64,000 nucleotides of DNA from a virus, in the IMG/VR virus record IMGVR_UViG_3300028581_002181, positions 32,001-96,000 of that record. The stretch is one strand, 5' to 3'. Positions within the stretch are counted from its first letter, which is position 1. The number at the start of each line of letters is the position of its first letter. Of the stretch, positions 5,054-58,251 are shown in pieces. The notes beneath the pieces are model-generated. The model was not told where the DNA came from and searched no databases. It saw only the letters and a list, made by a program, of their open reading frames with translations. A program made the position numbers and the translations under genes.

Positions 5054-5054
5054 G

Positions 5055-7564: not shown

Positions 7565-7579
7565 TTTAATAGGAGAATT

Positions 7580-7921: not shown

Positions 7922-7922
7922 A

Positions 7923-9619: not shown

Positions 9620-9620
9620 C

Positions 9621-38340: not shown

Positions 38341-39338
38341 GCTGTGACCTCCTCTTTAATTTTATATTTGGCATTCAATGGTTCAGCATAACTCTGTGCT
38401 TGGTCCACAATTCTTTGCATGTCCCATTTGGCACAAAATTTGATCAATTTGATTCCCACTTGTTCCACTGCTTTGGGTTGGGCTGCTTGTGCCACAGTTT
38501 CAGCCATAATTTGTTTGATTTCATCTGGTTGTGCTCGTAAATCACACAGTATCACGTTCCTATTGTAATCATCCAATACTCTGTGTTCCACACCTTCGTG
38601 ATCCATCCATCTCTGCAACATCATGTTGTTCCAATTGAATCCTTTGTTCTTTCTGTCTTCATATGCTTCTCTCAATCCCACTTTGGTCTTGGTACCTTTG
38701 GTTCTCACTCCTGGAAACGCAGAAAATATATTGTCAGTGCTGTCTCCACGCACACATTTTTCAAACAATTGCCATTCTGGCTCAGGCGCTGTTTTGTTTT
38801 CACCTGTTTTGTTGTCTTTGACCGGATTGCCTTTTTGGTCAAAATAACCTTTGTCAGTGATGGTCACTTCTGAAACGCCATTGTATTGCTTCACATTGGC
38901 AGCAATCAGTTGAGCAAAATCACTGTCTGTGCTGATGATTACATGCTGATCTCTAGGATGTGCTTGTATCCAAGCAGATATCAAATCATCTGCTTCCAAT
39001 CTTGGATTTTGCAACACTGTGCAATTGGTTTTGTTCTGTATGAATTCTTTAAAATTATCGAAAGTTTCCCAAAATACTGTCTCTTCTTCTTTTTCTTTGT
39101 CAGTGAGTGCTGCACGTGCATCCGATCTGTTGCGTTTGTAGGGTGCGTAAAAATCTTTGCGCCAACTGCGTCCTTCCAAACAAAATACCACATGATCTCC
39201 TTTGAAATCTTTCCATACTTTTCTTACACCGTTCAAAGTGATGTGCAAAGCCATGCCTATTTTTTCCGCCACATCTCCATTGGTCACATGGCGTGATCTA
39301 AAAAACACATTGGCTAAATCCACAAGCAAGTAAGTCAT
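38337..39338 (-). CDS. rnh: T4 RNase H-like 5'-3' exonuclease (FEN family)
   Basis: LLVDLAN, EGRSWRK, YKRNR, EADD, ISTDSDF.QL, GDSTDNI. Confidence 0.9.
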   Translation of the reverse strand: MTYLLVDLANVFFRSRHVTNGDVAEKIGMALHITLNGVRKVWKDFKGDHVVFCLEGRSWRKDFYAPYKRNRSDARAALTDKEKEEETVFWETFDNFKEFIQNKTNCTVLQNPRLEADDLISAWIQAHPRDQHVIISTDSDFAQLIAANVKQYNGVSEVTITDKGYFDQKGNPVKDNKTGENKTAPEPEWQLFEKCVRGDSTDNIFSAFPGVRTKGTKTKVGLREAYEDRKNKGFNWNNMMLQRWMDHEGVEHRVLDDYNRNVILCDLRAQPDEIKQIMAETVAQAAQPKAVEQVGIKLIKFCAKWDMQRIVDQAQSYAEPLNAKYKIKEEVTA

Positions 39339-39739
39339 TAACTGATTTCGGATCTATCCTTTCCTAATTTGTTCACATTGATGTATCCAGCACCACGTGT
39401 GGCATCTTGTCCTTGCTCCTGCAGCACATTTCTAGTGACTTCTCTAAACCAACCTTCCACTATTTCTTCATTGGTTTCACCTTTGTATCCTGCTGTGATC
39501 AGTTCTTCTATGAAAGCATTGTTCCAATCCAATTCAAAGAATCCATTTCTAATGTTTTCTTTGTTGATGTGAGTTTCCAGCACTGCCACCCAAGGTTTGC
39601 CTGCTTTGGTTGCTGCTTCTTTTTCACGCAACATTGCTTTGTGTGATTCGCTTTTGTTTTCAGTTGTGTCTTCTTTTTTAAATATTTTTTTAACTTTATC
39701 AAATATTCCCATATCTTTTTCCTCCATTATGTACCCCAT
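39338..39739 (-). CDS. Hypothetical protein
   Basis: ORF coupled between queE and rnh. Confidence 0.65.
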   Translation of the reverse strand: MGYIMEEKDMGIFDKVKKIFKKEDTTENKSESHKAMLREKEAATKAGKPWVAVLETHINKENIRNGFFELDWNNAFIEELITAGYKGETNEEIVEGWFREVTRNVLQEQGQDATRGAGYINVNKLGKDRSEIS

Positions 39740-40587
39740 GCATTTTTAAACAGAGGCACCTGTAATCTATCACTGTATCTATATCCCATCTTCATTGCCA
39801 GTTCCGCCACTGTTTTGTTGTTCATATGATAGACACTTTCCACTCCACCCACAGGCATCAGATACACTGATCCTGAGAATCCTGCTTTACGATAATCCTT
39901 CACTGCTTCTATGGCTTCCAGCACATCTGCTTGATTTGCCACCACAAATTTCAAATACACATGACCCACTTCACCATATTCTGCCACCACTTCAGGCAGT
40001 ATGGCTTCTTCACGTTTTTCTCCGCTCACACTCAATTTTGCACTCACAGAGAATGTCACACTGTCTTTGTTTCTGTTGTTGCGTTGCGTCCATTCTTTCA
40101 AATATTTTTTAAAATCCACATGCAACTTTTGAGTGCCATTGGTTTCAAAAGTGATTTCTTTTAGATCCTGCATCTTCACATGTTCCAACACATCTGGATA
40201 TGATCTCTGCCAACCCAGCAATGGTTCTCCGCCTGTGAATATAAAATGTTCATCCACCCATCGTTTATGAGGTAATATCTCCATGGTTCTTTCCACAATG
40301 GCATCTGATGTCAGCATGGGAGATAAATCTTTGAATCGCGGATCCCAAGATGCATATGAATCGCAACCTGTGTTCACCAATGGCAGCTCTTTGTAATCTT
40401 TGAATGGATGCAGTTTGTGCTGTTCAAACACTCGGTCATTCTCATCACTGCGCATGCCTCTGGGCAATCCAAAGCCAGCACAAGTGAAGTTGCAGCCAAA
40501 TGTTCTCAAGAACACCGAAGGCACACCCATGTATCTGCCTTCTCCTTGTATGCTGTAGAATAATTCTGCTATCTTAATCTTGCTCAT
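39727..40587 (-). CDS. queE: 7-carboxy-7-deazaguanine synthase QueE (radical SAM)
   Basis: ELFYSIQGEG...G.PSVFLRTFGCNFTC...CDS (extended Cys spacing), FTGGEP, ETNGT, SAKL, LMPVG, RYSDRLQ. Confidence 0.9.
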   Translation of the reverse strand: MSKIKIAELFYSIQGEGRYMGVPSVFLRTFGCNFTCAGFGLPRGMRSDENDRVFEQHKLHPFKDYKELPLVNTGCDSYASWDPRFKDLSPMLTSDAIVERTMEILPHKRWVDEHFIFTGGEPLLGWQRSYPDVLEHVKMQDLKEITFETNGTQKLHVDFKKYLKEWTQRNNRNKDSVTFSVSAKLSVSGEKREEAILPEVVAEYGEVGHVYLKFVVANQADVLEAIEAVKDYRKAGFSGSVYLMPVGGVESVYHMNNKTVAELAMKMGYRYSDRLQVPLFKNAWGT

Positions 40588-40949: not shown

Positions 40950-41636
40950 CTATCTTGGTGCAAATTGTTGTTGCAAGTTAATATTATCCATAAATTCTTT
41001 TTTAGTGCCAGCATCATCTTTGAAAGCACCTTTCAGCACAGTAGTCTGTGTGAGTGAACTGTGAGCCATTATGCCTCGGTTTTCACAACAACCATGTATG
41101 GCTTGTATGTAAACTCCAAGATCTCTGGCTCCTGTGGCTTTTTGAATTTCATTGGCAATATCATTACACAATGCCTCTTGCAGAGTGCCTCTTCTAGCAC
41201 ACCATTGTGCTATTCTTGTGTATTTGCTCAAACCTATCACTTTGCCATTGGGAATGATTCCAATGTATGCCACGCCGCTCACTGGTTGATGATGATGACT
41301 GCACACTGATTTTAATTCAGAACGCACCACCAACATGCCTGTGTAAGCATTTTCTCCCACATTGGGAAATGCTGTGGCATCGGGTCTAGATTCATATCTT
41401 CCACTCATTAATTCTTTCAAATACATCTTGGCCAATCTATGTGCTGTATTTTTGCTATTAGGATCGTTGTTGGTATCAATCACTAGACTGTTCAGCACAG
41501 ATGAAAACGATTCAGATAGTTCCTGTTCCAACAGTTCTAATTCACCTGGTTGAATGTGATCTGAAATGTTGTCATCAGCATGATAATTCACGCCAGCCGC
41601 AATCAGTCTTTGTTTAATCTTTTCTGATACTTTCAT
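40950..41636 (-). CDS. folE: GTP cyclohydrolase I FolE
   Basis: TAHRLAKMY, SVCSHHHQP, IGLSKYTRI, RGTLQE, HGCCENRG. Confidence 0.93.
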   Translation of the reverse strand: MKVSEKIKQRLIAAGVNYHADDNISDHIQPGELELLEQELSESFSSVLNSLVIDTNNDPNSKNTAHRLAKMYLKELMSGRYESRPDATAFPNVGENAYTGMLVVRSELKSVCSHHHQPVSGVAYIGIIPNGKVIGLSKYTRIAQWCARRGTLQEALCNDIANEIQKATGARDLGVYIQAIHGCCENRGIMAHSSLTQTTVLKGAFKDDAGTKKEFMDNINLQQQFAPR

Positions 41637-43908: not shown

Positions 43909-44259
43909 TTAAAAAGGCATTCTCAGTTGCATCTTGTTGTCATAATCATCCACCACAATGTTGTAGATGTTCTTAAATTTTTGAAACGCAATGTCCAATG
44001 TGGGATATTGTTCGCACATCTCTTTCACTCTGTGCATTTCAGGCATGATGTCTTCCCATAAGATAGGCAGTTTGTAATCTTCAAAATTAACACCTTTCAT
44101 AGCATCTGCTTCAAAATCAATACCTGTGGTAGTGACCGATGCGGCTCCAAATCCATAGGGCACTGATATGGTGGTGGCTGATACTGTGTTGGTGCCTGTG
44201 TTGGCAGTGTAATTGAAATCTGTTTGATAGACATTTTGTTTGATATTTTTATCTTCCAT
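43909..44259 (-). CDS. Hypothetical protein
   Basis: AAAGGA RBS before MEDKNIK (44259). Confidence 0.55.
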   Translation of the reverse strand: MEDKNIKQNVYQTDFNYTANTGTNTVSATTISVPYGFGAASVTTTGIDFEADAMKGVNFEDYKLPILWEDIMPEMHRVKEMCEQYPTLDIAFQKFKNIYNIVVDDYDNKMQLRMPF

Positions 44260-45340
44260 TTGCGATCCTTTGGTAAAGTTGTTTGCCACTAAAAAAGTTT
44301 TCTGCCAATGATATTTTTTGTTTGTGTACCAATGGAGCATATTTCTTGTAGTTGGTCATATAATCTTCTATTTTTCCTTTCAGCAGATGTTTGTGTTTTT
44401 GATAGTGCTCCAAAGATTCTGTCCACGCACTGGGATATTTGAACTCTTCATGAGCCATTTCTTTATAACTTAAACGATCAGGAATCATAGGAATCACTCC
44501 CAATACTGCACCTTCATACCAACTGATGCCCAATGTTTCTTGTAAATTAGCACTGAAAATCAGTTTGGCTTCTGCTAAAAGATTGTGATAGTCATTTTTA
44601 TTTTTGCACACTTCCAAACAAGTCACAAATTCATACTGTGGCATTTCTTTGGCCAAGTCTTGAAATATGTTGTGTTGTTTTTCTGGAGCTAATCTGTGTG
44701 GAAAAAGAATAATGTTCTTTTTTGTGATATTTTTATAACCTGTGAGATCAGCATCCAAATATTCCATGGGCCATCCACATCTCACAATCTTGCCTGTGTG
44801 AAACATATGGTCCACTGTTTCTTTGTCTGCCATTCTACCCAGATCCATCAAATTGTGTAAAAACATATCGATATGAAAATCTGTGGCAAAGTAATTGTGA
44901 TCAAATGATTCAAACAAGCTCTTCTCTGCCCAACGCACCCAAGGTTTATCACCTATCAGTCTGCCCAAAAAGTCTTGTGGATCATAGGATCCTGCGTGCC
45001 ACATGCCACCTATTTTAATTTTTACATTCAATAGTTCTGCCATGTACTTGAGTTGCAACACAGTGGGATTCCAAGCATCTGTGTACAGGAAATAATCACC
45101 ATCTTTGATGTCTCCTGCACTGAACATTTTAGCAATCTGTTCCAATTGTCTACTTTTGTATATGTTGGTGAATGCAAAATTTAAAAAAGCACCCGGAGTG
45201 GTATTTTTCACAGCATCTCCGCCGCTGATCACTTGAACTTCAGTGTTGGTGTGTCTTTTTAATTGAATGGGTAGATATTTTTTCCATTGCTTGGTGTATC
45301 TAGTTTCTACTTCTTCTAGATCCACAATATAAATCTTCAT
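44249..45340 (-). CDS. GT-B (GT4-like) glycosyltransferase
   Basis: ILFPHRLAPEKQ and the E-x7-E signature QETLGISWYEG...P. Confidence 0.75.
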   Translation of the reverse strand: MKIYIVDLEEVETRYTKQWKKYLPIQLKRHTNTEVQVISGGDAVKNTTPGAFLNFAFTNIYKSRQLEQIAKMFSAGDIKDGDYFLYTDAWNPTVLQLKYMAELLNVKIKIGGMWHAGSYDPQDFLGRLIGDKPWVRWAEKSLFESFDHNYFATDFHIDMFLHNLMDLGRMADKETVDHMFHTGKIVRCGWPMEYLDADLTGYKNITKKNIILFPHRLAPEKQHNIFQDLAKEMPQYEFVTCLEVCKNKNDYHNLLAEAKLIFSANLQETLGISWYEGAVLGVIPMIPDRLSYKEMAHEEFKYPSAWTESLEHYQKHKHLLKGKIEDYMTNYKKYAPLVHKQKISLAENFFSGKQLYQRIANGR

Positions 45341-45348
45341 GCACTACC

Positions 45349-45750
45349 CTAATTAATTGTTACAGATTGATCAGCAGGCCAAGTTATCACTGCCCCGTTC
45401 TCACCATCTTCACTCACATCTATCGTGACTTCTCTTTTGGGATATTTTGCACTAATCTGTTGATACAGATCAGTGGCCATCATTTCACAACTTTTGTAAT
45501 CTAATTCTAATACACCTTTGCCATATAAGTTTTCCAGCCATCTTTTAAACTGTATAAATTCAATTTCTCTATCATCATGAAACACTTCTATGGCTATTTT
45601 GAAGTGAAACATGTGTCTGTGAGGATAACCCAAAAAACTCACATCATATTCATCACCTGTTTTGAATTTTGGATCTGTCAAAGCAGCAGGAAATTTGTGC
45701 GTGCCTTCTCTGCGAAATGTTACCCAAATTTTAGATTTCATATTGTTCAT
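45349..45750 (-). CDS. QueD-like T-fold protein with LxxxHRHxF motif (DpdL-like)
   Basis: H16-region HKF, LGYPHRHMF, SCE, VSEDGENGA; lacks the canonical QueD CxxxHGH. Confidence 0.7.
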   Translation of the reverse strand: MNNMKSKIWVTFRREGTHKFPAALTDPKFKTGDEYDVSFLGYPHRHMFHFKIAIEVFHDDREIEFIQFKRWLENLYGKGVLELDYKSCEMMATDLYQQISAKYPKREVTIDVSEDGENGAVITWPADQSVTIN

Positions 45751-45759
45751 GTGTTTCAG

Positions 45760-45801
45760 TATTTAGGTTTATAGTATAACAACCTTTTCAATGTTTGTCA
45801 A
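45760..45801 (-). promoter_or_regulatory. Dual promoter: sigma70 TTGACA-17-TATACT plus late core CTAAATA
   Basis: TTGACA 45801-45796, TGtTATACT ending at 45773, CTAAATA 45766-45760. Confidence 0.75.
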
Positions 45802-46309
45802 TGTCCACAGGATAGTCGCCTTTGTATTCACTCCAATCTGTGTAGGTTTTTTTGGTCATTAACTTGTCCAAATCATGTGTCCAAACTCCTGAATTGGTTG
45901 CTCCCCAAGTGACATCGTCCAGTTTGATCACTGTGTTGGCATTGAAGTTTTTAATATTAGGTATTTTTACTGATATCATGTTGATAAAATGATTGTTCTT
46001 ATGCCAATTCATTCTTGATACCATTTCTGCATACTGCACATCATAATCCAATGTGACCCAATGTCCCAAATCTAATAAATTTTTAATAATGTTATTCCAA
46101 TCTGTCCAATTTTCTTCTGTCACAGGAGTAAAACTTTGACTGGTGCCAAGATATACATGTCTTACATTAGTTTTTTGAGTGTGTCGCACAATGTCTGCCA
46201 GTGCTGGCGTGCCTACAACAAACAGAGTCTTTTCACCTTTCATAGCAGTGTTCTCCACTTCTTTGCCTATGAAAAATTTTACTTTTTTTCTTGATTGTGT
46301 GTTCAACAT
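45788..46309 (-). CDS. Hypothetical protein within the deazaguanine cluster
   Basis: GGAGA RBS, TAATG coupling; VRHVYLGTSQSF, WVTLDY, MISVKIP. Confidence 0.65.
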   Translation of the reverse strand: MLNTQSRKKVKFFIGKEVENTAMKGEKTLFVVGTPALADIVRHTQKTNVRHVYLGTSQSFTPVTEENWTDWNNIIKNLLDLGHWVTLDYDVQYAEMVSRMNWHKNNHFINMISVKIPNIKNFNANTVIKLDDVTWGATNSGVWTHDLDKLMTKKTYTDWSEYKGDYPVDIDKH

Positions 46310-47217
46310 TATTTTCTCCAATCTATATACCCTCTTGCATAGCCATTGGTTCTATTTGTAGCATCTGCAAAAGCATCACGCCATTCAGTGCTTCTGCTGT
46401 AACCTTTGGTCCAAAAGTTAGAAACATCCAGTTTGCCTGTGCTAATAAAATCCACTGCTTCACGCATGCATTCTATAAATTTTTTATTTCTAGGACTGGG
46501 AAATCCCACAGTCACAGCATTCCATAACAGATGAGCAAAATTAGTGCGAACTGAATCTGTTTTTTCAGCAGCCAGTATTAATAATGCTTCAGCATTGAAC
46601 ATATTTCTATCAAACACTTCTGATTTAGTATTCAAATCTATTATAACATCAAACAGTCCTTCAGCATTGTGGGTAAGTTTTTCACCCCAAAATGCTTTGT
46701 TGTGATGGCCCAACACAGTGACATCAAACTGATAATTTTTTATTTGCAAATAGGTATACACCACATAAGACAGAAATCCACTGCCTATGATCAATAATCT
46801 ATTATTATTGCCTGCTTTGTTTTTGATTGCTGTTTCAAACTGTTTGATCACATTGATGCCACAAGCCACAGGCTCCACAATGTATTTGGGATCTGCTGTG
46901 GGCACTTTAACATAGGTTTCTGCATCACAATTGTACTGATCAGCATAAGCAGGTTCTCCTCTGGTGGCCACAAAATCTCCCACTTGAACATCATTTACTT
47001 CACTGCCCACATGAGTCACTTGACCCAATCCTTCATGTCCTTGCATACTCAATGGCAATGTTTTGAATTTACCCAGCATCATGTCCACATCACTGCGACA
47101 CACTCCAGTCATAATATTTTTTACTCTAATTTGTTCAGGATTTAATTCAGGAATATCTATACTGCCTTCATGGAACATGCCATCTCCTTTGGTATATAAC
47201 AGTTTAGTTTCAGTCAT
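46309..47217 (-). CDS. Zn-dependent medium-chain dehydrogenase/reductase
   Basis: GVCRSD, GHEGLG, VGDFV, EPVACG, IIGSGFL; lacks the structural-Zn loop. Confidence 0.8.
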   Translation of the reverse strand: MTETKLLYTKGDGMFHEGSIDIPELNPEQIRVKNIMTGVCRSDVDMMLGKFKTLPLSMQGHEGLGQVTHVGSEVNDVQVGDFVATRGEPAYADQYNCDAETYVKVPTADPKYIVEPVACGINVIKQFETAIKNKAGNNNRLLIIGSGFLSYVVYTYLQIKNYQFDVTVLGHHNKAFWGEKLTHNAEGLFDVIIDLNTKSEVFDRNMFNAEALLILAAEKTDSVRTNFAHLLWNAVTVGFPSPRNKKFIECMREAVDFISTGKLDVSNFWTKGYSRSTEWRDAFADATNRTNGYARGYIDWRK

Positions 47218-48097
47218 TGATTGTATTATGAATCCAAACATCATGTTCTTTGTGTTGGTTCCAAAACTCCTCATTGTTAATATTATTGAAAACATCTTGA
47301 ATCATAGTGGCATAAACTGGTTCAGGACACAGTCCCAGTTCAAAACTTTTAACTAATTTTTCTCTCTGATAGCAATGGATTGCTCTGTCATCTTTGTCCA
47401 TGCTGCGCCAATCAGCAGTTAGAATATATTTTTTCTTACCATCATTCAGTATGATTTCATTCCAATCATCCACATTATATGTGCCATCCAAATTGATCGA
47501 ACCATATTCTGTGCTAATGAGTTGATCCAGTTTCCAATTTTGTTTAACAATATTGCTCTCTATTTGAAATTCTTTGTAGTGGTTAGGATTCATATAAATG
47601 AATATGCTCAATAGATGTGGCATAAGATCTCTGCTGACTCCACCAAATGATAATTTTTTAGTGGTAAACCAGCTGCCTGGTGCTGGCACTCTATCACGAT
47701 TGATCCAATTGATATGAATCACTTCTGCTGCTGCTGTTCTGATATTGAATTCTTCTTCCCATGTTCTCCACATGTTGTTTTTGATCATTATGAATCTAGT
47801 TTGAGGATATGTGAGTTGTAGTGTCTGCCATCTTTTGGCATTGAGTACTCCTGGTTTTTCCACAAACACTATTCGACAATGTTTGGCAATCTTTTGAGCA
47901 ATTGTATCATGTGTATAGTTGGGAGTGCAGATGAACGCAGCATCCAACAGAGGATGTGCATACAAGGCTGTGTCAAGATTGGCAAATGTGGCCTGCTTGC
48001 TTTGATCTGTGTCCATGGTGATCACTTCATGCCCCAACTGTGTCAAAATTTTTGCATACAGTTGCCCCATGCCTAAACCTATCACCAATGTTTTCAT
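47210..48097 (-). CDS. Gfo/Idh/MocA family oxidoreductase
   Basis: VIGLGMG, ICTPNYTH, VFVEKP, GGVSRDLMPH. Confidence 0.85.
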   Translation of the reverse strand: MKTLVIGLGMGQLYAKILTQLGHEVITMDTDQSKQATFANLDTALYAHPLLDAAFICTPNYTHDTIAQKIAKHCRIVFVEKPGVLNAKRWQTLQLTYPQTRFIMIKNNMWRTWEEEFNIRTAAAEVIHINWINRDRVPAPGSWFTTKKLSFGGVSRDLMPHLLSIFIYMNPNHYKEFQIESNIVKQNWKLDQLISTEYGSINLDGTYNVDDWNEIILNDGKKKYILTADWRSMDKDDRAIHCYQREKLVKSFELGLCPEPVYATMIQDVFNNINNEEFWNQHKEHDVWIHNTIND

Positions 48098-48288
48098 ATT
48101 TTTAATTGTTTTCTATATTCTTCTATTTGTGTTTTGATCGCCAGTTTAATTTTCTTATAATTCTTTAATAATGCTTTGCTCTCCCAACTTCTATCATGTT
48201 CTCTTTCCTGTTCCATTTCTTCAGTTTTTCTATGATAGTAATCAAATTCGTGTTCTAATTTTTTTAAACTTTTATTCTTTTTGCTCAT
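48094..48288 (-). CDS. Small basic coiled-coil protein
   Basis: GGAGG RBS; LKKLEHE...KKIKLAIKTQI. Confidence 0.6.
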   Translation of the reverse strand: MSKKNKSLKKLEHEFDYYHRKTEEMEQEREHDRSWESKALLKNYKKIKLAIKTQIEEYRKQLKI

Positions 48289-48289
48289 G

Positions 48290-49753
48290 CTATACCTCCT
48301 CAAATAAGTTAGAAAATTGTGTTGAAGCATTCACTGTTTTTTTGCCTGTGGCGCCTCTGGTGCCTATGATACTCATCCAAAATCTATTGTATTCCTCAAT
48401 CACTGCTTCTGCTGTGTCTCTGCTGTCTGTGGCAAATATTGCTTCCACTATGTCTTTGAATGCCACTTTATCAAATTTTTCTTCCACCAACATGCGTGGA
48501 GTTAATCCTGCGTCATACTGTCTGTTGGCTTCCTGCACAGCATTGATATGTGTCCAAACATTGTGTGCCATTTGTAATGTGTAACTGAATGAATCCCAAG
48601 ATGTTTTGGGATCACCACCCACTTTGTTTTTGTCTCCTGGCGCATAGCAGGTCACATCTTTCAACTGTAATCTTTGACTGATTGGGCTATCTTGAAAATT
48701 ATCAAATATCTTTTCTTGCAACACAGCATCTCTAAACATTCTAGTGTCACCAGCATATTTTTTATCATCTATGCTGGCAGCCATTCTATATGACCATTTT
48801 TCTCTGTCTTTGATATCCACTTCTGTGTAAATTTGTCCATTAGCAGATGCTAGGAATGGAGAAGCACAATCAAAACTCATAGTGAAATTTTCATTGTGAT
48901 ATTTTCGCACAGCTCTTTGTATGTCTGTCAACAACACTGCCCATTCCAGTTTGGATGTGCCTAGGAAGTGCATCCAATCATGCACACCTTTTTCTAATAA
49001 GCCATCAAATCTCAATGCCACCAATCTTTTCAATATAAGATGCACATCACACATGTTCTGACCGCCCATTGCCCAACCATTAAAATGAGTGGTGGGATAT
49101 TTTTTAGGATCACAGTAATCTTTCATCTGTTGATACCAATCATCTGCTTGTTGAAAGTTTTCACCTTGCAACACATTTAAAAACTTACAAGCACCCGTTC
49201 TAGTCTTCATGAAGTAATCATTGTTGATTCTGGTGCCATCCACTGCTTCTTGATAGGAATTGATATTGCTGGCTTTGGCACCTTCTGGAGAACGTGAAAC
49301 CCATGCTGGAATATCCAATATCATACCATAGTCCATGTTGGCATCCATCCAAGTGAGCACCTGTTCTCGCTTCTTCTTGGCTCGGGGACAAGTGGGATCT
49401 TTCCAATTGCCTTCCCATACTCCTTTACCAATCTGAAACCCTCCTGAATCACCCAGTACAAAACTGGTTTTTCTATCTCGGTTTCTTATGATGTCATCTC
49501 TGGCACTAAATTTGTCCATGTTCAAGTCAGCATGACCTGCACTGTACAAATGCCATCTGTAATGAAAATATGTGTTGGTGGGCACAAGATAATTCATGCC
49601 TTCTATGCCATGATTAAAAGCAGCCGGAATCCTATGAGGCAGAATATAATCTTTCTCATGTCTGGCTTTGCCTATATCTCTCGCATAGAAACTGCTCAAC
49701 GCCGGCAGAAAAATAGCGTAATCCTTTTGTTGTGCTGTTAAGTCAGTGTGCAT
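48290..49753 (-). CDS. dpdA: DpdA/TGT-family 7-deazaguanine transglycosylase-like protein
   Basis: TGT catalytic motifs GDSGGFQ, ILDIP, NVLQG, GWAMGG, HFLG, SFDCASP; co-located with folE, queE and the QueD-like gene. Confidence 0.75.
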   Translation of the reverse strand: MHTDLTAQQKDYAIFLPALSSFYARDIGKARHEKDYILPHRIPAAFNHGIEGMNYLVPTNTYFHYRWHLYSAGHADLNMDKFSARDDIIRNRDRKTSFVLGDSGGFQIGKGVWEGNWKDPTCPRAKKKREQVLTWMDANMDYGMILDIPAWVSRSPEGAKASNINSYQEAVDGTRINNDYFMKTRTGACKFLNVLQGENFQQADDWYQQMKDYCDPKKYPTTHFNGWAMGGQNMCDVHLILKRLVALRFDGLLEKGVHDWMHFLGTSKLEWAVLLTDIQRAVRKYHNENFTMSFDCASPFLASANGQIYTEVDIKDREKWSYRMAASIDDKKYAGDTRMFRDAVLQEKIFDNFQDSPISQRLQLKDVTCYAPGDKNKVGGDPKTSWDSFSYTLQMAHNVWTHINAVQEANRQYDAGLTPRMLVEEKFDKVAFKDIVEAIFATDSRDTAEAVIEEYNRFWMSIIGTRGATGKKTVNASTQFSNLFEEV

Positions 49754-49770
49754 AAATTTACTTGTGTAAA

Positions 49771-50499
49771 CTATTTGGTCTGTGCTGGCAATATATAATT
49801 GTATTCAGCGATACCACTGTCCACAGTTAATTGCATAGCACCTTGATCACTAAGACTCATTTTGATCTTGCCATCAAGATTCAATATGCTGATTACCTGT
49901 TGAATGGGCCAACTCCAACCTTGTTTCAATTCACCCACCACATTGGCTTGGAATATAAAACTTCCTGCATGCGAATTAGCATCTCCAAAGTAAAACATCA
50001 AATTCTTGTTTTCAGTTTTTACTGTGAACACAGTTTCTTCTGTGTGTGCTGCTGCCTGCAGTTTTAATCTTTGAATACTGGCCAGTGTGGGTTCAAATTC
50101 TATGCTCCAAGCTGTGCCTTTAAACTTGATTGATTTAAGTTTTTCATTGATGATTTCAGTGTTCATAAATCTGTAATCATTTTGGAAATCACCTGATGAA
50201 TTTTCAAAGTGAATATGAGTTGGAATTTCCACTCCATTGCGTGTGGCTTTGACCACATTTAATTTAGCGTCTTTTTGATACTCAGGACATTTCAAATGCA
50301 ATGCCAGTTTGTCCAAGTTAGGCATACCAAATGTACCTGTAAATTCAAATACTTTTTTATTGGTTGTTGCTGAAAGAATAACTGATCTGTCTTCAGCCAT
50401 ACTTTCAATTTTGGTTTTTTCTTCGTTGGTAACTTTTACTAGACTCAAAAATCCTAATTGATGAGTGTGTGCTACCACGTCTTGTAAGATGTCTTTCAT
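49771..50499 (-). CDS. Probable DNA polymerase sliding clamp (gp45-like)
   Basis: 242 aa with a repeating beta-alpha pattern, near PolB; context-based call. Confidence 0.6.
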   Translation of the reverse strand: MKDILQDVVAHTHQLGFLSLVKVTNEEKTKIESMAEDRSVILSATTNKKVFEFTGTFGMPNLDKLALHLKCPEYQKDAKLNVVKATRNGVEIPTHIHFENSSGDFQNDYRFMNTEIINEKLKSIKFKGTAWSIEFEPTLASIQRLKLQAAAHTEETVFTVKTENKNLMFYFGDANSHAGSFIFQANVVGELKQGWSWPIQQVISILNLDGKIKMSLSDQGAMQLTVDSGIAEYNYILPAQTK

Positions 50500-50523
50500 T
50501 TTGTGTTCTCCATTGTTGTGTTC

Positions 50524-50552
50524 ATTATATTTAGGCCTTAGTCAGAAGTCAA
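50524..50552 (-). promoter_or_regulatory. Dual promoter: sigma70 TTGACT-17-TATAAT overlapping late core CTAAATA
   Basis: TTGACT 50552-50547, TATAAT 50529-50524, CTAAATA 50534-50528; GGAGA RBS. Confidence 0.78.
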
Positions 50553-51305
50553 GTGATATTTGTTTTTAATGTACTCAATCACATTAACTTTTGGTTCCCA
50601 ACCTAAATCTCTTAATTCTTTGATATTGGCACAGTTGTCCATTCTTTCGAACTCATCACCTTTAACTGATGCATAATTCGTTATGCCTGCCGAATCCACC
50701 AAAGTTTTTAAATTGTTGCTGATTCCACAGCCCACGTCTATTACTCCTGTGATGTCTTTGGTCATCAATAGATCTATGGCAGACACAATATCACTCACAT
50801 GTATGAAATCTCTGGTATGATCAGTGATGTACTGTATGTTATTTTTGAATAATTTAGACATAAACATATCTGCACGGCCATCTTCAGCCCACACAGTGGT
50901 AAATCTTAATCCCAAACTATTTTTTGGTGCAATTTTTTCCATAGCAAATTTACTGAATCCATAAGGATTCAATTCTGGTTCGGCAGCTGAACTGCTGCTG
51001 GCATATATTATCTTTGTGTTGGGAAAGGCAGCAAATAATTTTTGACTTGCCAACACATTATTTTGCCAATATTTTATAGGATTCTGTAAACTGTCTCGCA
51101 CAGAAGCTATACCAGCCAAATGTATCACTAGATCCACATCATAATTTAAATCACAAGTGAGTAGATCTTGCTGATTGTTTCGATCCAATCCAATCACTGT
51201 GTGTGCAAATTCCAGCACTCCATTTCGCATCACTCTCACTGTGCTCAAATAATCACGCAGATATGACCCTATAAATCCTAGATGTCCTGTCAATAGTATT
51301 TTCAT
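50538..51305 (-). CDS. NAD-dependent nucleotide-sugar epimerase/dehydratase
   Basis: TGHLGFIGS, VIHLAG, YASSS, YGFSK (YxxxK), LRFTTV, RDFIHV.D. Confidence 0.9.
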   Translation of the reverse strand: MKILLTGHLGFIGSYLRDYLSTVRVMRNGVLEFAHTVIGLDRNNQQDLLTCDLNYDVDLVIHLAGIASVRDSLQNPIKYWQNNVLASQKLFAAFPNTKIIYASSSSAAEPELNPYGFSKFAMEKIAPKNSLGLRFTTVWAEDGRADMFMSKLFKNNIQYITDHTRDFIHVSDIVSAIDLLMTKDITGVIDVGCGISNNLKTLVDSAGITNYASVKGDEFERMDNCANIKELRDLGWEPKVNVIEYIKNKYHLTSD

Positions 51306-51841: not shown

Positions 51842-54514
51842 CTAATCTCCCAAGTCAAATAATGTGTTGAATGTGTTGCCTGTTTCTGTGCTTTGAATAT
51901 CCCAATCCAGCACTCCCAACAGGTTGCCCAATTTACTATCGATCACTGTGGTCTCCATGGCTGCATGATCAAAAGGTAATTCTTTAAACCATTGTGGTAT
52001 TCTCAATTGATCTGTGGGATAGGCCACACTGGTATAATCTAACGGGTTATTTTTAAGTTTGCACACAATCACTTTCATACCATCCACAATCTCTATACTG
52101 TATCTGTCATTGTTCATGCGTTTGAGTGTGTTCCAATTGATGCTGGCTCTCACATGTCCTGGCATGTTGGCTTTGCCTTGTGCTTTTTCTTTCTTTTGAT
52201 AATCTGCCACATTGTTGGCACGTTTGGGTGAGCCTTTTTCCCAACCTGGACGCAGTTTGAATTCATTTCTAAATGTGCTGATTCTTTCCAGCACTGCTTT
52301 CTCATCCGATTTGGTCAACACCATCAGTAATATCTCACTCAAAAAATCCTGCACGAACACCGGAGTGTCCGAACGTTTGAGATCCAATCCCATGGCTTTT
52401 ACTTTGCCTGGTTTTCCTTCTACATCCATACGATTGCCTTCCAATTCATATATCAGCACAGCATATCTTTTTTTAGTGATAAACAATCCTGTTTCACTGA
52501 TGGATTCACGACCTGCTTGAATCACTTCTGCTCTTGTTTTTGGACAATGAAATGCTTCACTCATGAATGCTTTAAAACTGTTGTTGACTTCTTCAGCCAC
52601 TTGATCATACAGTCTAATCACACTCTCTTTGCTCCAAGGAATCAATCCAGCATCAATATCTTTCTTTAAAACTTTGTAAGCACTAAAATAAGCAGAGTCT
52701 GTGTCACCATATATCACAGCATCACCCAGATGATCGTATGTGCCTGTGATCACTTCGTTGATCTTGGCTGCCATGTGTTTGCTGATGGTTCTACCTGTGA
52801 GCGTGGTGGATTGACCTATGCGTTTATCAAAGAATCTACAGCCTGGATTCAATATGGCACCATACAGCGAATTCAAATTAATTTTTTTGACCAATTGTCT
52901 TTTGTCCCAAAATTCAATTTCTGCTTGATTGCTGGCATGTTGTGCTTTCTTTTTCATGGCTTGCATTTCTGTTCTTTCCTGATACCATGTTTTCAACAAG
53001 CCAGGAATAACTCCTTCAAACTCTGTGGTAAACATGGTGCCATTGGCACTGATCATGATGGGATTTCTGCTTTCAAATATCATTTTGTAAATTTCTGCAC
53101 CACTTTTTACCTCGGTTCTACCATCTTCCCAATCAATGGTGATGGGCTGATCTCGTCTCTGAGTCATCACATATTCATACTCCAAACTGCCAAATTTGTT
53201 TTCCCATGCTGCTGCAAATGATTTGCCTTGCAGATTAATCTGATCCTGTAGGAATGCTTCAGTGTAGGTGGGTCTCAATTGTCCTACCACACATTCAGGA
53301 GCCATGTTGAGTGCTCTGATCACACTAGGATACAGTGAATTCAAGTCCATGGATCCTATCCAGTCATGCAGTCCTTTTTTGGGAAATGCCACATAAGCAC
53401 CTGCTGCAGTGGTGTCATCACCCTCTGCTCTGTGTGGTCTATTGGGCACTTGCAATCCTCTTTTGTGTGCTTCATTGATAATGGCTTGCTCAGTCACGGC
53501 CACTGCTCCCATAGTGGTTTGCATCAACACAGTGTTGGCGTGTGCCAGTTCATTGCTGAGTTCTAAAAATTTAAGTTTTTTATCCAAATTGTTCAGCAGT
53601 TGCACGTCCTGTCTATTGTATTCCACAAAAGTTTTAAAATCTTGGTTGTACAATTGATCCAAGGTGCCTTCATACACTGTTTTCTTCTCTCCCAACTCCA
53701 TTTCACCTATGGCATCCAATCTGTATGTGTGGCGTTCTTCATAGGTATATTTTCTATACAGTTCCAAACTGTCTATGTGTACTCTGCCCACTAGATCATA
53801 GGTTTCTTGCTCACGTCCATACTTTTCAAAAGTTCTTTTTTTGGGCATCTGTGACCACAAACAAAAACGTCTGGTGTCATCTTTGCTCAATACTTTGCTG
53901 ACTCTATTCACTAGATAAGGCATATCATAGCCTTCTGAGTTCCATCCACTCAGCACATCCACATCTTCTATGATGTCCAAGAATGCCTGCAGCATGTCTG
54001 CTTCACGCTCATACAGATACAAATTTTCAATGTGCTTGGTCTGCTCTCGGGCTTGCTCCATGTTTAATGTCTTGGGAATCAGTGCAAAAGTAACCATGCT
54101 GTTGATCCATTGTAGATACACAGTGATGGCAGTGACTGGCATGAAGGGGTCTGAGGGATCAGCGAATCCTTTTTCAGGATCAAAGTCTGCTTCTATGTCA
54201 AAAAATGCCACATTCAGTTTGGGAGCATCGTGGTTGAGATAATTGGCACTGAGACATTGAAATATGGGATTGATGTCGGATTCAAATAATTTTTTGTTCC
54301 TATTGATGGCCAATTCTTTGTGAAAGTCTTTGGTGTTTTTGCTGACGATCCTGCTGAGACTGTTGCCATAGATACTTCTAAATTTGCCATTGGCATCTTC
54401 ATAAAAAAATGTGTATCTAATGGGATATTCTTTGTAGATTCTTTTGCCTTCTTTGCGTTCTACCACGCGAATGATATCGTGATTTCTATCGAAAAATGCG
54501 TCTATGTAACTCAT
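51842..54514 (-). CDS. polB: Family B DNA polymerase (T4 gp43-like)
   Basis: FDIE, GWNSEGYD, DLNSLYPS, KINLNSLYG, YGDTDS, KKRY. Confidence 0.97.
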   Translation of the reverse strand: MSYIDAFFDRNHDIIRVVERKEGKRIYKEYPIRYTFFYEDANGKFRSIYGNSLSRIVSKNTKDFHKELAINRNKKLFESDINPIFQCLSANYLNHDAPKLNVAFFDIEADFDPEKGFADPSDPFMPVTAITVYLQWINSMVTFALIPKTLNMEQAREQTKHIENLYLYEREADMLQAFLDIIEDVDVLSGWNSEGYDMPYLVNRVSKVLSKDDTRRFCLWSQMPKKRTFEKYGREQETYDLVGRVHIDSLELYRKYTYEERHTYRLDAIGEMELGEKKTVYEGTLDQLYNQDFKTFVEYNRQDVQLLNNLDKKLKFLELSNELAHANTVLMQTTMGAVAVTEQAIINEAHKRGLQVPNRPHRAEGDDTTAAGAYVAFPKKGLHDWIGSMDLNSLYPSVIRALNMAPECVVGQLRPTYTEAFLQDQINLQGKSFAAAWENKFGSLEYEYVMTQRRDQPITIDWEDGRTEVKSGAEIYKMIFESRNPIMISANGTMFTTEFEGVIPGLLKTWYQERTEMQAMKKKAQHASNQAEIEFWDKRQLVKKINLNSLYGAILNPGCRFFDKRIGQSTTLTGRTISKHMAAKINEVITGTYDHLGDAVIYGDTDSAYFSAYKVLKKDIDAGLIPWSKESVIRLYDQVAEEVNNSFKAFMSEAFHCPKTRAEVIQAGRESISETGLFITKKRYAVLIYELEGNRMDVEGKPGKVKAMGLDLKRSDTPVFVQDFLSEILLMVLTKSDEKAVLERISTFRNEFKLRPGWEKGSPKRANNVADYQKKEKAQGKANMPGHVRASINWNTLKRMNNDRYSIEIVDGMKVIVCKLKNNPLDYTSVAYPTDQLRIPQWFKELPFDHAAMETTVIDSKLGNLLGVLDWDIQSTETGNTFNTLFDLGD

Positions 54515-54578: not shown

Positions 54579-54827
54579 TTACCTAATATAGTATAACAGT
54601 ATACCACCTATGCCCACACATGTCAACACAATGTTGGTCACTATGAGTGCCGATTCTCGCCAAATCAATGCCACCATCAACCAAAACACGCCACCCAAAG
54701 CCAGCAGTGCCGGACCCATGGGGTATAGTTCTGGAAAACCAGCATTCACAAATGTGCCCACTATCAGTATGGCAGTGGCAATCCATTTGAGGATTTGATC
54801 TAGCTTATTTGGTTTCATGTCTGTCAA
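54579..54827 (-). CDS. Small 3-TM membrane protein
   Basis: Three hydrophobic segments; WIATAILIVG...W...W. Confidence 0.7.
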   Translation of the reverse strand: MTDMKPNKLDQILKWIATAILIVGTFVNAGFPELYPMGPALLALGGVFWLMVALIWRESALIVTNIVLTCVGIGGILLYYIR

Positions 54828-55857
54828 AAATTCTATTGATCACATTGTTCACTCTCACAAAATGAGCACACTTGGGCATGTCTTTGATGCGTCTGGCTCC
54901 AATGTAGGTGCAGGTGCTTCGCACACCACCCAATATCTGTTCCACTGTGTCTTTCACAGAACCTCTGTCTTCCAACAGCACAGTCTTGCCTTCGGTGCCT
55001 CTGTAGCCATCTTTCCTTGCACCGTGTTGTTCAAATGCTGATTCCGAACTCATGCCGTAGAACACTCGCTTGCCATCTTGCAGTTCCAATTCTGATTCGT
55101 CATGTGCTGCCAGCATGCCTCCCAGCATCACCATGTGAGCACCTGCGCCTAATGCTTTGGCAATGTCTCCTGGCTGTGTGCAACCACCATCTGCTATGAT
55201 GTGTCCGCCCACGCCGTTGGCAGCATCTGCACATTCTATCACTGCTGAAAATTGTGGCACTCCCACTCCGGTCTGTGTTCTTGTGGTGCACACTGATCCT
55301 GGACCTATGCCAATCTTGACCACGTCTGCTCCGTTGATAATCAATTCTTCCACCATTTCTGGTGACACCACGTTGCCTGCTATGATGGTCTTGTCGGGAA
55401 ATTCTGATCTAATTCTTTTGACAAAGTCCACAAACTGCTCGTGATATGCGTTGGCCACATCTATGGTGATCATGTTGACATCTGGGTATTTTACCATGAC
55501 CTTTTTCAAGGTTTGATAGTCGGGAGAATTGTTGTCCCATATGGCACCTGTGCCTGTGCATGCACTCACATATTGTAATTTTAATCCAGTGCCCATTGCT
55601 CTGTCCCAATCTTCAATGGTGTAATGTTTTCTTAACACAGTCAGCAGTTTGTATTCCTGCAATGCTCTGGCCATGCTGAATGTGCCCACGCCATCCATGT
55701 TGCTGGCCACTATGGGCACAAATGCAATCTGTTGTTTGCTATTACGAAATGTGAAATCTCTGGTCATGTCCACATCACGTCTTGAACTCAGTGTGGATCT
55801 TTTGGGTTTTAATAGTACGTCTGCGTAATCAAGATGTATGTTATAATCTATTCTCAT
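54805..55857 (-). CDS. guaC: GMP reductase
   Basis: DYADVLLKPKRSTLSSR, ASNMDGVG, IDVANAY, KIGIGPGSVCTTR, IIADGG, FYGMSS, EGK, GGVRSTCTY. Confidence 0.93.
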   Translation of the reverse strand: MRIDYNIHLDYADVLLKPKRSTLSSRRDVDMTRDFTFRNSKQQIAFVPIVASNMDGVGTFSMARALQEYKLLTVLRKHYTIEDWDRAMGTGLKLQYVSACTGTGAIWDNNSPDYQTLKKVMVKYPDVNMITIDVANAYHEQFVDFVKRIRSEFPDKTIIAGNVVSPEMVEELIINGADVVKIGIGPGSVCTTRTQTGVGVPQFSAVIECADAANGVGGHIIADGGCTQPGDIAKALGAGAHMVMLGGMLAAHDESELELQDGKRVFYGMSSESAFEQHGARKDGYRGTEGKTVLLEDRGSVKDTVEQILGGVRSTCTYIGARRIKDMPKCAHFVRVNNVINRIFDRHETK

Positions 55858-56711: not shown

Positions 56712-58250
56712 TCATTTATTATGAAGTTTTGATATAAATTGGTAATATTCTTCAGTTTGATTGCTGATGCCGTCCGCCCAAATTTGTTTCTTTGTGAGGT
56801 AATCATGCAATTTATTTTGTAGGTCTTTGGGAGAATTTTTGCTCCAATTATGTAAATTATCTAACCAAACACTGGCCAACTCTGCCCACATATAATCTGG
56901 AAATATGGTCAAAAAATTGTATGAACGCGATACTGTGTTTTTTTCGGAATTATATTTTTCCTTAAGCAGTTGTTTGTGATTCAATTCAATTCCTAAATCA
57001 TACATGTCTTGCCAAAATTTATTTGTTTTTTTTGAACACAATGTATAATGCACACTGATAAAGTCTGCGATGTCATCCAAAGCATAACAAACTTTTTCAT
57101 TGTAATCTGCCCAATCATTGTTGTTTTTTATGGCCATAGTGGCTGCAAATATCGTTGAAACTGAAATGAACAGTGCGTTGGCTTCCATGGGCTCTATAAA
57201 ACCTGCTGCCATGCCCACAGCACAAACGTTTTTTATTGCTGGAGTTTTAAATCTTTTTGGTTCCCACTTGATCAGTCTTGGTTCTTTTAAATTTTTTTTA
57301 TCTATAATTTTTAAAAATTCTTCTTTGGCTTGTGCATCTGTAAAATATTTGTCATTATAGACCAATCCACAACCCATTCTATTCAATAAACCAATTTTAA
57401 ATATCCAACCCATGGAGTGCCAGATGGATTGAGTGTGATTCTTACACTCTTGGTCAGCATCTGAATATTTCAAAGGACTTACCCAAGCACTGTTGGCAGG
57501 ACAATGAGTGTATGCATGATAATCATTGGTTAATTTGCTGATCAATGTTCTGTGAAATCCTGTGGCGTCTATCCAAATATCACTGCTGATGATTGCTCCT
57601 GATTGGAGTTCAACGCTGGCTATGCCTTGTTGATCACAATTTACTTTTGTGATTGTGTCTATGATTTCTTTTACACCACTGGGTTTGGCATGTTTTTCAA
57701 TCAAATAAGGAGCCAGTTTTTCCGCATCAATGTGATAAGCATAGGAAAAATTTTCACTGCCCAAATAACATCCATTGCTATCAAAAGGAGCTTTGTTTTT
57801 GTTCATGAATGAATACAAAGGCACAAATGAATCACTGTAATTTTGTACTTTTTTGTTATTAAATAAATCTATCCATACATCTGTTGCTCGCATGTCTGTA
57901 GGACCTATGGAAACAATGTCTTCTTTAGTGATAGGTTGATTATTAAAAATTTTTTCCAAAGGCTCATTATAGTTGAAAGCAAAATATACATCTTCTTTTT
58001 CATTTATCCAATCTTTAAAACAGTTGGCATATTTAAAAATACTTTGAGTGGCCAGCATCATGTCTTTTTCATCCACACCTATTTCATTCAAAAATCCTTT
58101 CACATGAGGTGTAACACTTTCTCCCACTCCTATGGTAGGAATATGATCACTGTGTAGTAAAATTATTTGATCTGTGGGAAAATGTTTTTTTAAAAAACAC
58201 GCTGCTAGAGCTCCAGCAGTGCCTGCACCTACCACAGTAATGGTTTTCAT
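56712..58250 (-). CDS. Flavin-dependent tryptophan halogenase (PrnA-like) family protein
   Basis: VVGAGTAG, IGVGES, ATQSIFK (catalytic Lys position), YAYHIDA, IDATGF, GWIFKIGL, GFIEPMEA. Confidence 0.88.
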   Translation of the reverse strand: MKTITVVGAGTAGALAACFLKKHFPTDQIILLHSDHIPTIGVGESVTPHVKGFLNEIGVDEKDMMLATQSIFKYANCFKDWINEKEDVYFAFNYNEPLEKIFNNQPITKEDIVSIGPTDMRATDVWIDLFNNKKVQNYSDSFVPLYSFMNKNKAPFDSNGCYLGSENFSYAYHIDAEKLAPYLIEKHAKPSGVKEIIDTITKVNCDQQGIASVELQSGAIISSDIWIDATGFHRTLISKLTNDYHAYTHCPANSAWVSPLKYSDADQECKNHTQSIWHSMGWIFKIGLLNRMGCGLVYNDKYFTDAQAKEEFLKIIDKKNLKEPRLIKWEPKRFKTPAIKNVCAVGMAAGFIEPMEANALFISVSTIFAATMAIKNNNDWADYNEKVCYALDDIADFISVHYTLCSKKTNKFWQDMYDLGIELNHKQLLKEKYNSEKNTVSRSYNFLTIFPDYMWAELASVWLDNLHNWSKNSPKDLQNKLHDYLTKKQIWADGISNQTEEYYQFISKLHNK

Positions 58251-58251
58251 A

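Follow-up and report, generated by a model that had tools for sequence, protein, structure and literature searches.

A glycosyltransferase within a DpdL-type 7-deazaguanine gene set of a large marine phage: a candidate for sugar modification of a deazaguanine-type base in DNA

Gene content of the locus

The stretch of DNA analyzed here, which we call the window, comprises 64,000 nucleotides from a virus (bases 32001-96000 of the 116,456-bp IMG/VR record IMGVR_UViG_3300028581_002181), and our subject is a gene set within it that combines a glycosyltransferase (GT) with enzymes of 7-deazaguanine DNA modification. Because the 116-kb record is only ~32% complete (CheckV), its source should be a large or jumbo phage, and for the same reason a missing QueD, QueC or hydroxymethylase is no proof of absence. 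All the genes under study lie on the minus strand, inside an operon of replication genes (Table 1). Read from high to low coordinates, the operon begins with a family-B DNA polymerase, an Rv2179c-like exonuclease, an epimerase of the short-chain dehydrogenase/reductase (SDR) type, a sliding clamp and a 487-residue DpdA-like transglycosylase. It continues with a 78-residue open reading frame (ORF; p78), a Gfo/Idh/MocA oxidoreductase (Gfo), a zinc-dependent dehydrogenase (Zn-ADH), a 177-residue protein (p177), a QueD-like protein that we assign to DpdL, and the GT. Beyond the GT come a 143-residue ORF (p143), a phosphoribosyltransferase (PRTase), a HIT protein, two unknown proteins, FolE, QueE, a 133-residue protein and a 5'-3' exonuclease. 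We read the region as part of a DpdL-type 7-deazaguanine DNA-modification module within the replication operon of a large marine phage.

Every gene named in a preliminary description of this DNA is present on the minus strand where it had been placed, and the cofactor and catalytic motifs are kept. The epimerase does lie two genes ahead of dpdA, separated from it by the sliding clamp. Gfo and Zn-ADH are indeed downstream of dpdA, not directly as had been written, p78 being interposed.

Sequence comparison argues strongly that the GT belongs functionally with the deazaguanine genes. Because it sits in a deazaguanine gene set here, in unrelated phages and in bacteria, a sugar-bearing deazaguanine is a serious candidate for its product. 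The link is strong; the product, a sugar-bearing deazaguanine-type base in DNA, is a candidate on which our judgement is evenly divided.

Table 1. Features of the operon in the window, from high to low coordinates; counts refer to the related viral loci described in the text
Feature	Position	Strand	Basis and remarks
Family-B DNA polymerase	51842-54514	-	operon member
Extended-SDR NAD epimerase/dehydratase-like protein, 255 aa	50538..51305	-	Pfam Epimerase (PF01370) E 8.7e-20; phrog_540, nucleotide-sugar epimerase
Sliding clamp, between epimerase and DpdA-like	49771..50499	-	phrog_12062
DpdA-like TGT-superfamily transglycosylase, 487 aa	48290..49753	-	motifs and fold of model
p78, basic ORF, 78 aa, pI 9.7	48094..48330	-	no family match; in 41/80 loci
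Gfo/Idh/MocA oxidoreductase, 295 aa	47210..48097	-	Pfam GFO_IDH_MocA (PF01408) E 1e-8
Zn-ADH, Zn-dependent medium-chain dehydrogenase	46309..47295	-	Pfam ADH_N E 6.5e-11
p177, core protein, 177 aa	45788..46321	-	in 75/80 loci
Sigma-70-like promoter site ahead of DpdL and GT	45773..45801	-	TTGACA-17-TATACT, upstream TG
DpdL, QueD-like T-fold protein, predicted CDG decarboxylase	45349..45750	-	motif; phrog_17812
GT4-like GT-B glycosyltransferase, 363 aa	44249..45340	-	fold of model, motifs, family conservation
p143, ORF, 143 aa	43909..44340	-	no family match; in 46/80 loci
PRTase, phosphoribosyltransferase, 151 aa	43453..43908	-	Pfam Pribosyltran E 1.1e-10; phrog_8995; in 73/80 loci
HIT-family protein, 134 aa	43074..43478	-	Pfam HIT E 7.1e-12; NCBIfam HinT-like; in 71/80 loci
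FolE, GTP cyclohydrolase I	40950..41636	-	Pfam GTP_cyclohydroI E 5.2e-41
QueE-like radical SAM enzyme (CDG synthase)	39727..40587	-	phrog_2076 E 1.2e-48; weak Pfam Radical_SAM match

The glycosyltransferase and DpdL

The GT family is a divergent GT4-like branch. Against Pfam Glycos_transf_1 the protein scores 17.1 bits, under the gathering cut-off of 26.4; an AlphaFold model built on an alignment of 60 relatives (pLDDT 95.8, pTM 0.93) has the GT-B fold, and its top Foldseek matches are all GT4 enzymes. VIA-align places it nearest to sucrose-phosphate synthase (SPS; 6kih, Z 26.0) and BshA (6n1x, Z 25.1), over 304-319 residues, with the retaining GT4 enzymes PglA, MshA and PimA also near. The E-x7-E motif reads ETLGISWYE (residues 268-276), and the Arg/Lys pair for the donor diphosphate (R216/K221) lies within FPHRLAPEKQ (residues 213-222). 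Among the 60 relatives, which are 27-50% identical, E276 is invariant and E268, R216 and K221 are at least 90% conserved; judged from the model, the GT looks catalytically active. The N-terminal (acceptor) domain is unusually conserved in this family and has conserved residues of its own, including Q65, W90 and E139. The family comprises 1148 clusters at 50% identity (E ≤ 0.001 to the query), many of them ocean-metagenomic. PDB 8xsg, the best sequence match of the GT profile, was considered as a pteridine glycosyltransferase and rejected, being an Actinobacillus glucoside-glucosyltransferase.

The gene preceding the GT had been described as QueD-like. The likeness to QueD is real; the identity is another, since residues 40-48 read LGYPHRHMF and so carry the signature LxxxHRHxF in place of the CxxxHGH of QueD. 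This signature defines DpdL, a predicted 7-carboxy-7-deazaguanine (CDG) decarboxylase that lacks the catalytic Cys of PTPS and QueD (Cui et al. 2023, PMC10516641). The window's DpdL is 54-68% identical to the GT-adjoining genes of phages PAC2, Phosso and ACP17, and tblastn gives 54.5% to ACP17 DpdL (E 3e-36) and 34.4% to CGPG_00067 of phage phiST (E 3e-9); CDG decarboxylation by it is predicted from this kinship and motif. Only 8 nt separate the end of DpdL from the start of the GT, and a promoter-like site in the p177-DpdL gap matches 11 of 12 consensus positions, a consensus match only. Both are in keeping with the earlier statement that a GT4 enzyme with E-x7-E lies downstream of the QueD-like gene under the same promoter.

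Linkage in viral and bacterial loci

In IMG/VR, 283 loci encode a GT at least 61% identical to the window's, and conservation was counted in 80 of them. The core order DpdA-like, p177, DpdL, GT, PRTase, HIT, FolE, QueE is kept in 76 of the 80, and so the arrangement is not due to chance. Written out more fully, the order is polymerase, (exonuclease), (epimerase), clamp, DpdA-like, (p78), [Gfo, Zn-ADH], p177, DpdL, GT, (p143), PRTase, HIT, then further genes, FolE and QueE. The gap between DpdL and GT measures 12-280 nt in 75 loci.

Outside the window's clade, the GT stands beside DpdA and/or DpdL in five independent cultured phage lineages. In the Pseudomonas jumbo phage PAC2, of the PA5oct group, a dpdA-like gene (34% identical) ends where the GT gene (44%) starts, and DpdL, an epimerase-domain gene, PRTase and QueE follow. 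Acidovorax phage ACP17 has the series QueD, FolE, a p177 homologue (29% identical, just upstream of dpdA), DpdA, an overlapping GT (36%), DpdL and QueE. The order in Xanthomonas phage X1 is FolE, further genes, a GT-like gene (25%), DpdA, DpdL and QueE; in Burkholderia phage BCSR5 it is DpdL, further genes, GT, a 446-aa gene, QueE and FolE; and in Sinorhizobium phage Phosso DpdL adjoins the GT, FolE and QueE being close by. The GT thus abuts or overlaps dpdA in PAC2/PA5oct, ACP17, X1 and BCSR5, while DpdL is its immediate neighbor in PAC2, Phosso and ACP17 and lies 1.5-3 kb away in X1 and BCSR5.

Related GT genes were also seen in other company. Four viral loci (L014, L015, L016 and L020; the L015 stretch is 1-14635 of a 41,662-bp contig) have as GT neighbors a non-specific endonuclease, an AMP-binding/methyltransferase fusion, a polysaccharide deacetylase, a CTP-synthase-N-terminal-like protein and a DNA ligase. 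In Xanthomonas phage PhiXhv-12 (L092 5669-8903), a distant GT (26% over residues 67-302) stands beside a BshB-like GlcNAc-malate deacetylase and GlmS. There is no DpdL match in PhiXhv-12, and its set may be a different sugar-based modification system. The deacetylases of both neighborhoods are a weak hint at a HexNAc donor.

The association extends to bacteria. In species-representative genomes, the bacterial GT is 38-47% identical to the window's, and a DpdA-like gene is no more than ~2 kb away from it in 16 of the 17 loci, which come from alphaproteobacteria and metagenome-assembled genomes (MAGs), with genera including Methylobacterium, Aurantimonas, Pelagibacterium, Devosia, Ochrobactrum, Azospirillum and Roseobacter. 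A gene with the DpdL motif is found in about half of these loci, and the bacterial islands show no FolE or QueE within the ±8 kb examined. What the preliminary description had proposed, a sugar on a modified purine, accordingly gains a firm link between GT and deazaguanine genes from the five phage lineages and the bacterial loci; the tailoring genes, as described below, are accessory.

Two of the bacterial loci, from an Aurantimonas sp. (L111 3678-9607) and Pelagibacterium mangrovi (L104 3042-9035), are small islands of two unknown proteins of ~310-345 aa, the DpdA-like protein, a small gene and the GT. On either side of the Aurantimonas island lie ordinary bacterial genes, and in the island there are two small genes, one of them DpdL. 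The other, between DpdA-like and DpdL, weakly matches Vut_1 (23.6 bits, under the 27.2 cut-off), the family to which YhhQ, the queuosine-precursor transporter, belongs. A serine resolvase neighbors the Pelagibacterium island. Neither island has a member that matches a PADLOC model, and such islands may represent an undescribed DNA-marking or defence island.

The DpdA-like transglycosylase

The DpdA-like protein carries the motifs GDSGGFQ (residues 101-107), VLQGEN (194-199), HFLGTS (262-267) and FDCASP (294-299). GDSGGFQ and FDCASP, of the catalytic-Asp type, are invariant in 30 DpdA-like relatives, and their Asp residues presumably correspond to D102 and D280 of Zymomonas mobilis TGT. The best 50 Foldseek PDB matches of its model (pLDDT 77, pTM 0.82) are all TGT, QTRT1 or DpdA (7ui4), with E-values of 6e-5 to 4.5e-4; with TM-scores of 0.31-0.48 and that pLDDT, the match is to be read at the level of the fold. 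The protein has no TGT/DpdA match in Pfam (PF01702), NCBIfam, PHROG or PADLOC, and phmmer against PDB sequences gave no match. Its homologues among metagenome proteins number at least 7927, many from Tara ocean samples.

With a DpdA-like profile of Neff 1.8 against single-sequence templates, hhalign gives probabilities of 12.5% to phiST, 0.9% to ACP17 and an insignificant value for X1; the low-probability ACP17 alignment still lines up the DSGG-Q, QG, H-LG and FD motifs. A chain of homology runs through the bacterial DpdA-like proteins (tblastn 24-30% identity; BLASTP E 6e-5 to ACP17). The DpdA proteins of ACP17 and X1 are 38% identical to each other and both only remotely related to the window's, and so it is two DpdA subtypes that the GT accompanies.

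The sugar-tailoring enzymes

The motifs of the three putative tailoring enzymes are intact. The SDR protein has GHLGFIG (GxxGxxG) at residue 7 and YGFSK (YxxxK) at 115; its best PDB sequence matches are of the GalE, MoeE5 and UXS types, and its substrate binding may differ, since it has 255 residues against the 338 of GalE. Gfo has GLGMGQ at residue 7 and EKP at 80, and its best PDB sequence match, for the N-terminal part only, is the C-glycoside 3-oxidase DgpA2 (E 9.6e-6). Zn-ADH has GVCRSD at residue 64, GHEGLG at 86 (zinc ligands) and GSGFLS at 171; its profile matches cover the N-terminal domain only, and those in NCBIfam and PDB are threonine, sorbitol and alcohol dehydrogenases. The longest Zn-ADH ORF and the end of Gfo have 86 nt in common. 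An ATG at 47217 (Met27), 2 nt past the Gfo stop, fits the usual ADH_N position, so the real protein probably starts there and has 302 residues.

Among the 70 loci that show DpdA-like and p177, Gfo and Zn-ADH are both present in 41, both missing in 29 and never found singly. In the 55 of these that also show polymerase and clamp, the pair occurs alone in 30, the epimerase alone in 18, both in five (the window's close kin) and neither in two, so that the epimerase is present in 23 and missing from 32, and one and/or the other is found in 53. This near-alternation fits two routes to a non-standard sugar, because an epimerase and an oxidise-reduce pair can each invert a hydroxyl.

These enzymes might instead act on the base. 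Zn-ADH, Gfo and/or the epimerase could have as their substrate the side chain of the deazapurine, or else a ribosyl intermediate supplied by the PRTase, for example by turning the C7 carboxyl into a hydroxymethyl group, which would give the GT an acceptor like that of 5-hydroxymethylcytosine (hmC). The PRTase, the HIT protein and a nearby GMP-reductase-like gene are at hand for such chemistry and invite comparison with the toyocamycin and tubercidin pathways, which work at the nucleotide level. We consider this decidedly unlikely: 29 of the 70 loci keep GT, DpdL and DpdA without the pair; the carboxyl would be removed by DpdL, and its reduction needs an activating enzyme, none being identified; and the PRTase is absent from ACP17, X1, BCSR5 and Phosso. 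Outside this phage clade, PRTase and HIT genes are limited to PA5oct, the PRTase being found in PAC2 also.

Searches across the record

PF01702, PF00303, PF01242 and PF06508 were searched over the whole 116-kb record (~32% complete), all with negative results. No match was found in Pfam, NCBIfam, PHROG or PADLOC for p177, p143, p78, p205 and p275, or a usable one in the ESM Atlas for p177, and 8 kb compared by megablast with 50,697 phage records matched none. The clamp is 36% and 32% identical to genes annotated as PCNA or sliding clamp in PAC2 and Phosso, respectively. The 133-residue protein (39338-39739) was tried as the missing QueD and rejected; it lacks an HxH motif and matches a virion-protein PHROG.

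These searches bear on a further possibility, that the GT glycosylates a hydroxymethyl-pyrimidine or another non-purine DNA base in the manner of the T-even phages, its place among deazaguanine genes being incidental. Glucosylation of hmC and hydroxymethyluracil (hmU) in DNA is a known precedent, T4 α-glucosyltransferase (AGT) is a distant structural neighbor of the GT (Z 18.6), the incompleteness of the record means that a hydroxymethylase could lie outside it, and PAC2 and Phosso each encode one gene of the thymidylate synthase (TS) family. A pyrimidine hydroxymethylase had been named beforehand as the alternative to check, and a search for PF00303 was negative both for the record and for ACP17, whose 156-kb genome is complete. 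In PAC2 the annotation is that of an ordinary thymidylate synthase, and the Phosso protein matches the profile strongly from end to end (E 1.4e-126), as expected of such an enzyme; the small bacterial islands combine DpdA-like and GT without pyrimidine enzymes. For PA5oct DNA, moreover, the pattern of resistance to five restriction enzymes is reported to indicate a modified G, and QueE and PTPS-like genes have been noted in this phage (PMC12191111). We therefore think a pyrimidine acceptor very unlikely.

Neighboring genes

Just upstream of the polymerase lies a gene for a 350-aa protein of the IMPDH/GMP-reductase family (54805-55857, minus strand; Pfam E 1.2e-69), found in 33 of the 80 related loci. 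Together with the PRTase it recalls, we presume, the ToyE/ToyH and TubD/TubE steps of deazapurine antibiotic synthesis; it might simply alter the G nucleotide pool. Some 12 kb from the GT, at 56712-58896 (minus strand), is a 536-aa protein of the flavin-dependent tryptophan halogenase family (Pfam E 5e-76, phrog_2928), followed by a protein of a ferredoxin-annotated PHROG (phrog_3704, E 2.4e-88). Enzymes of this halogenase family attack electron-rich carbons of pyrroles and indoles, a description that also fits C7/C8 of 7-deazaguanine.

In a large enzyme island between tail genes, the window encodes a UDP-glucose/GDP-mannose dehydrogenase family protein (24378-25559, plus strand; Pfam E 9.5e-34), which could be a source of UDP-glucuronate, and, at 17915-19228, a radical SAM/SPASM protein; seven other ORFs of the island have no Pfam match. 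At 97344-100924 of the genome (L003 1344-4924), genes for a ClpB-like double AAA+ chaperone (748 aa) and DnaJ (283 aa) stand side by side, with PhoH and a T4 gp44-like clamp loader nearby.

Discussion

We propose a model in which the family identities of the enzymes set out the first steps. CDG would be made by FolE and QueE, together with a QueD not in view; DpdL is predicted to decarboxylate it to 7-deazaguanine; and the TGT-fold DpdA-like enzyme would swap guanine in DNA for this base. The GT, as the fixed partner of the DpdA-like enzyme, may then use an NDP-hexose from the host pool to place a sugar on the deazaguanine-type base, either while the base is still free or once it has been inserted into the DNA. 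Virion DNA would thereby come to contain a sugar-bearing deazapurine and be protected from restriction. The epimerase and the Gfo/Zn-ADH pair could be interchangeable accessory modules that alter the stereochemistry or oxidation state of the sugar, and through them related phages may carry different sugars.

Extended to relatives, the model would place glycosylated 7-deazaguanine, with a sugar varying by lineage, in the virion DNA of this clade and of PA5oct, ACP17 and Phosso, with the same DpdA-GT pair marking the DNA of some alphaproteobacteria; we put this wider claim forward tentatively, at slightly less than even likelihood. The dpdL and dpdA of ACP17 together gave no 2'-deoxy-7-deazaguanine (dDG) in E. 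coli, and further enzymes were proposed (PMC10516641). As the GT gene overlaps dpdA in that phage, the GT is the obvious candidate for such an enzyme. In the literature that we searched, which left out most subscription journals, there was no description of a glycosylated deazaguanine in DNA.

Several observations weigh against a sugar-bearing base in DNA. Plain 7-deazaguanine has no hydroxyl, amine or carboxyl at C7, so that N2, a ring carbon or a precursor such as CDG would have to take the sugar. The Gfo/Zn-ADH pair and the epimerase are optional tailoring genes and no part of the core, and their alternation may rest on few events in two or three clades, because the loci are related to each other. 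No NDP-sugar synthesis gene, nucleotidyltransferase or dehydratase lies within the cluster, so that the earlier idea of a custom NDP-sugar gains no support from it. The four viral loci with GT neighbors of another kind, whose GT is 69-72% identical, show neither DpdA nor DpdL, on fragmentary contigs of 7 to 42 kb. Phage phiST has plain dDG in its DNA without any GT (PMC10516641). The GT family is acidic overall (median pI 5.7), and its nearest structures are small-molecule or glycan GT4 enzymes (BshA, SPS, PglA) and no DNA glucosyltransferases: T4 AGT (1y6f) ranks 33rd and a GT of phage HY126 scores Z 18.4 against a top score of 26, which leaves AGT no closer than many cellular GT4 enzymes. 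The fold comparison is compatible with DNA, a free base or another small molecule as acceptor alike.

The structural neighbors lend themselves to another explanation, in which the acceptor of the GT is a small molecule that stays out of DNA, either a FolE-derived pterin, as a BGluT-like enzyme would, or a free deazapurine base, with the oxidoreductases and epimerase tailoring that metabolite. Natural products of the huimycin and dapiramicin types are N-glycosylated free deazapurine bases. The combination of FolE and reductases with a GT4 enzyme and a T-fold protein of the PTPS/QueD kind is reminiscent of a route to pterin glycosides; BGluT (5zer), which glucosylates tetrahydrobiopterin in cyanobacteria, is among the structural neighbors (Z 20.2); the top neighbors BshA and MshA take small acceptors; and an acidic family fits the same picture. 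BGluT is, however, no closer than dozens of other GT4 enzymes, and the most faithful partner of the GT is the DpdA-like gene, not FolE or DpdL, with bacterial islands often lacking DpdL. The genes, further, lie within a replisome operon, DpdL is without the catalytic Cys of PTPS and QueD (PMC10516641), and PA5oct DNA is modified at G (PMC12191111). We judge this explanation fairly unlikely.

The lack of an obvious acceptor group on 7-deazaguanine would also be accounted for if the GT merely aids the DpdA-like enzyme, by glycosylating that enzyme, another protein or a transient intermediate, and the DNA carries plain dDG as in phiST. The overlap or abutment of GT and dpdA in four lineages would suit such a helper, as would the inactivity of ACP17 dpdL and dpdA in E. 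coli without further genes (PMC10516641). Set against this, phiST, which lacks a GT, makes dDG with DpdA3 and DpdL; conservation of the NDP-sugar site is complete; and the variation in epimerase and Gfo/Zn-ADH modules is difficult to account for unless the sugar is part of a diversifying product. A helper role appears unlikely to us.

Should the DNA indeed carry a sugar-bearing deazaguanine, this could explain both the G modification of PA5oct, a candidate for therapeutic use, and the failed reconstitution of DpdL and DpdA in E. coli. It would bear on the evasion of restriction and END nucleases and on the sequencing and enzymatic handling of such DNA. The gene set is very widespread, and PA5oct, Paride, ACP17, Phosso, X1 and BCSR5 are in culture.

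Comparison with known systems

The nearest characterized system is that of the Cellulophaga phage phiST, which, like the window, combines FolE, QueE, a DpdL with LxxxHRHxF and a TGT-superfamily transglycosylase beside the DNA polymerase, and has no QueC (Cui, Hutinet et al. 2023, PMC10516641). Unlike the window, phiST has no GT, oxidoreductase pair, epimerase or HIT gene next to the cluster, and its transglycosylase (CGPG_00065) has 259 aa against 487, with the low hhalign probability between the two given above. The PA5oct group (Wroclawvirus: PA5oct, Paride and PAC2) shares with the window the polymerase, clamp, DpdA-like protein (34%), GT (44%), DpdL (54%), epimerase-domain gene, PRTase, QueE and RNase H; it lacks the Gfo/Zn-ADH pair and has FolE and QueD elsewhere, next to thyA.

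Among glycosyltransferases, the T4 α- and β-glucosyltransferases are, like the window's GT, GT-B phage enzymes, and they place the hexose of a UDP-sugar on an already modified base as a defense against restriction. Their acceptor is 5-hydroxymethylcytosine, whereas no hydroxymethylase was found in the window's record, itself about one third of a genome, and AGT resembles the GT only in the general GT-B manner (Z 18.6 against 26), with no detectable sequence similarity. BshA, MshA and BGluT share with the GT the E-x7-E and R/K motifs and an NDP-sugar donor and are its best structural matches; they are 10-15% identical to it, and the partners of the window's GT are DNA-modification genes, not thiol or pterin pathways.

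In the tRNA of animals, a 7-deazaguanine base is inserted by TGT and then glycosylated, giving mannosyl- and galactosyl-queuosine, which to our knowledge are the only sugar-bearing 7-deazaguanines in nucleic acid. These differ from the product proposed here in being RNA and in bearing the sugar on a cyclopentenediol, which the window's pathway cannot make. In DNA, all the glycosylation known to us is on hydroxymethyl-pyrimidines, and all the deazaguanines known to us are small C7 variants. A deazapurine sugar, if the GT does make one, would join both strategies in a new class of base and would be the first glycosylated purine analogue in any DNA.

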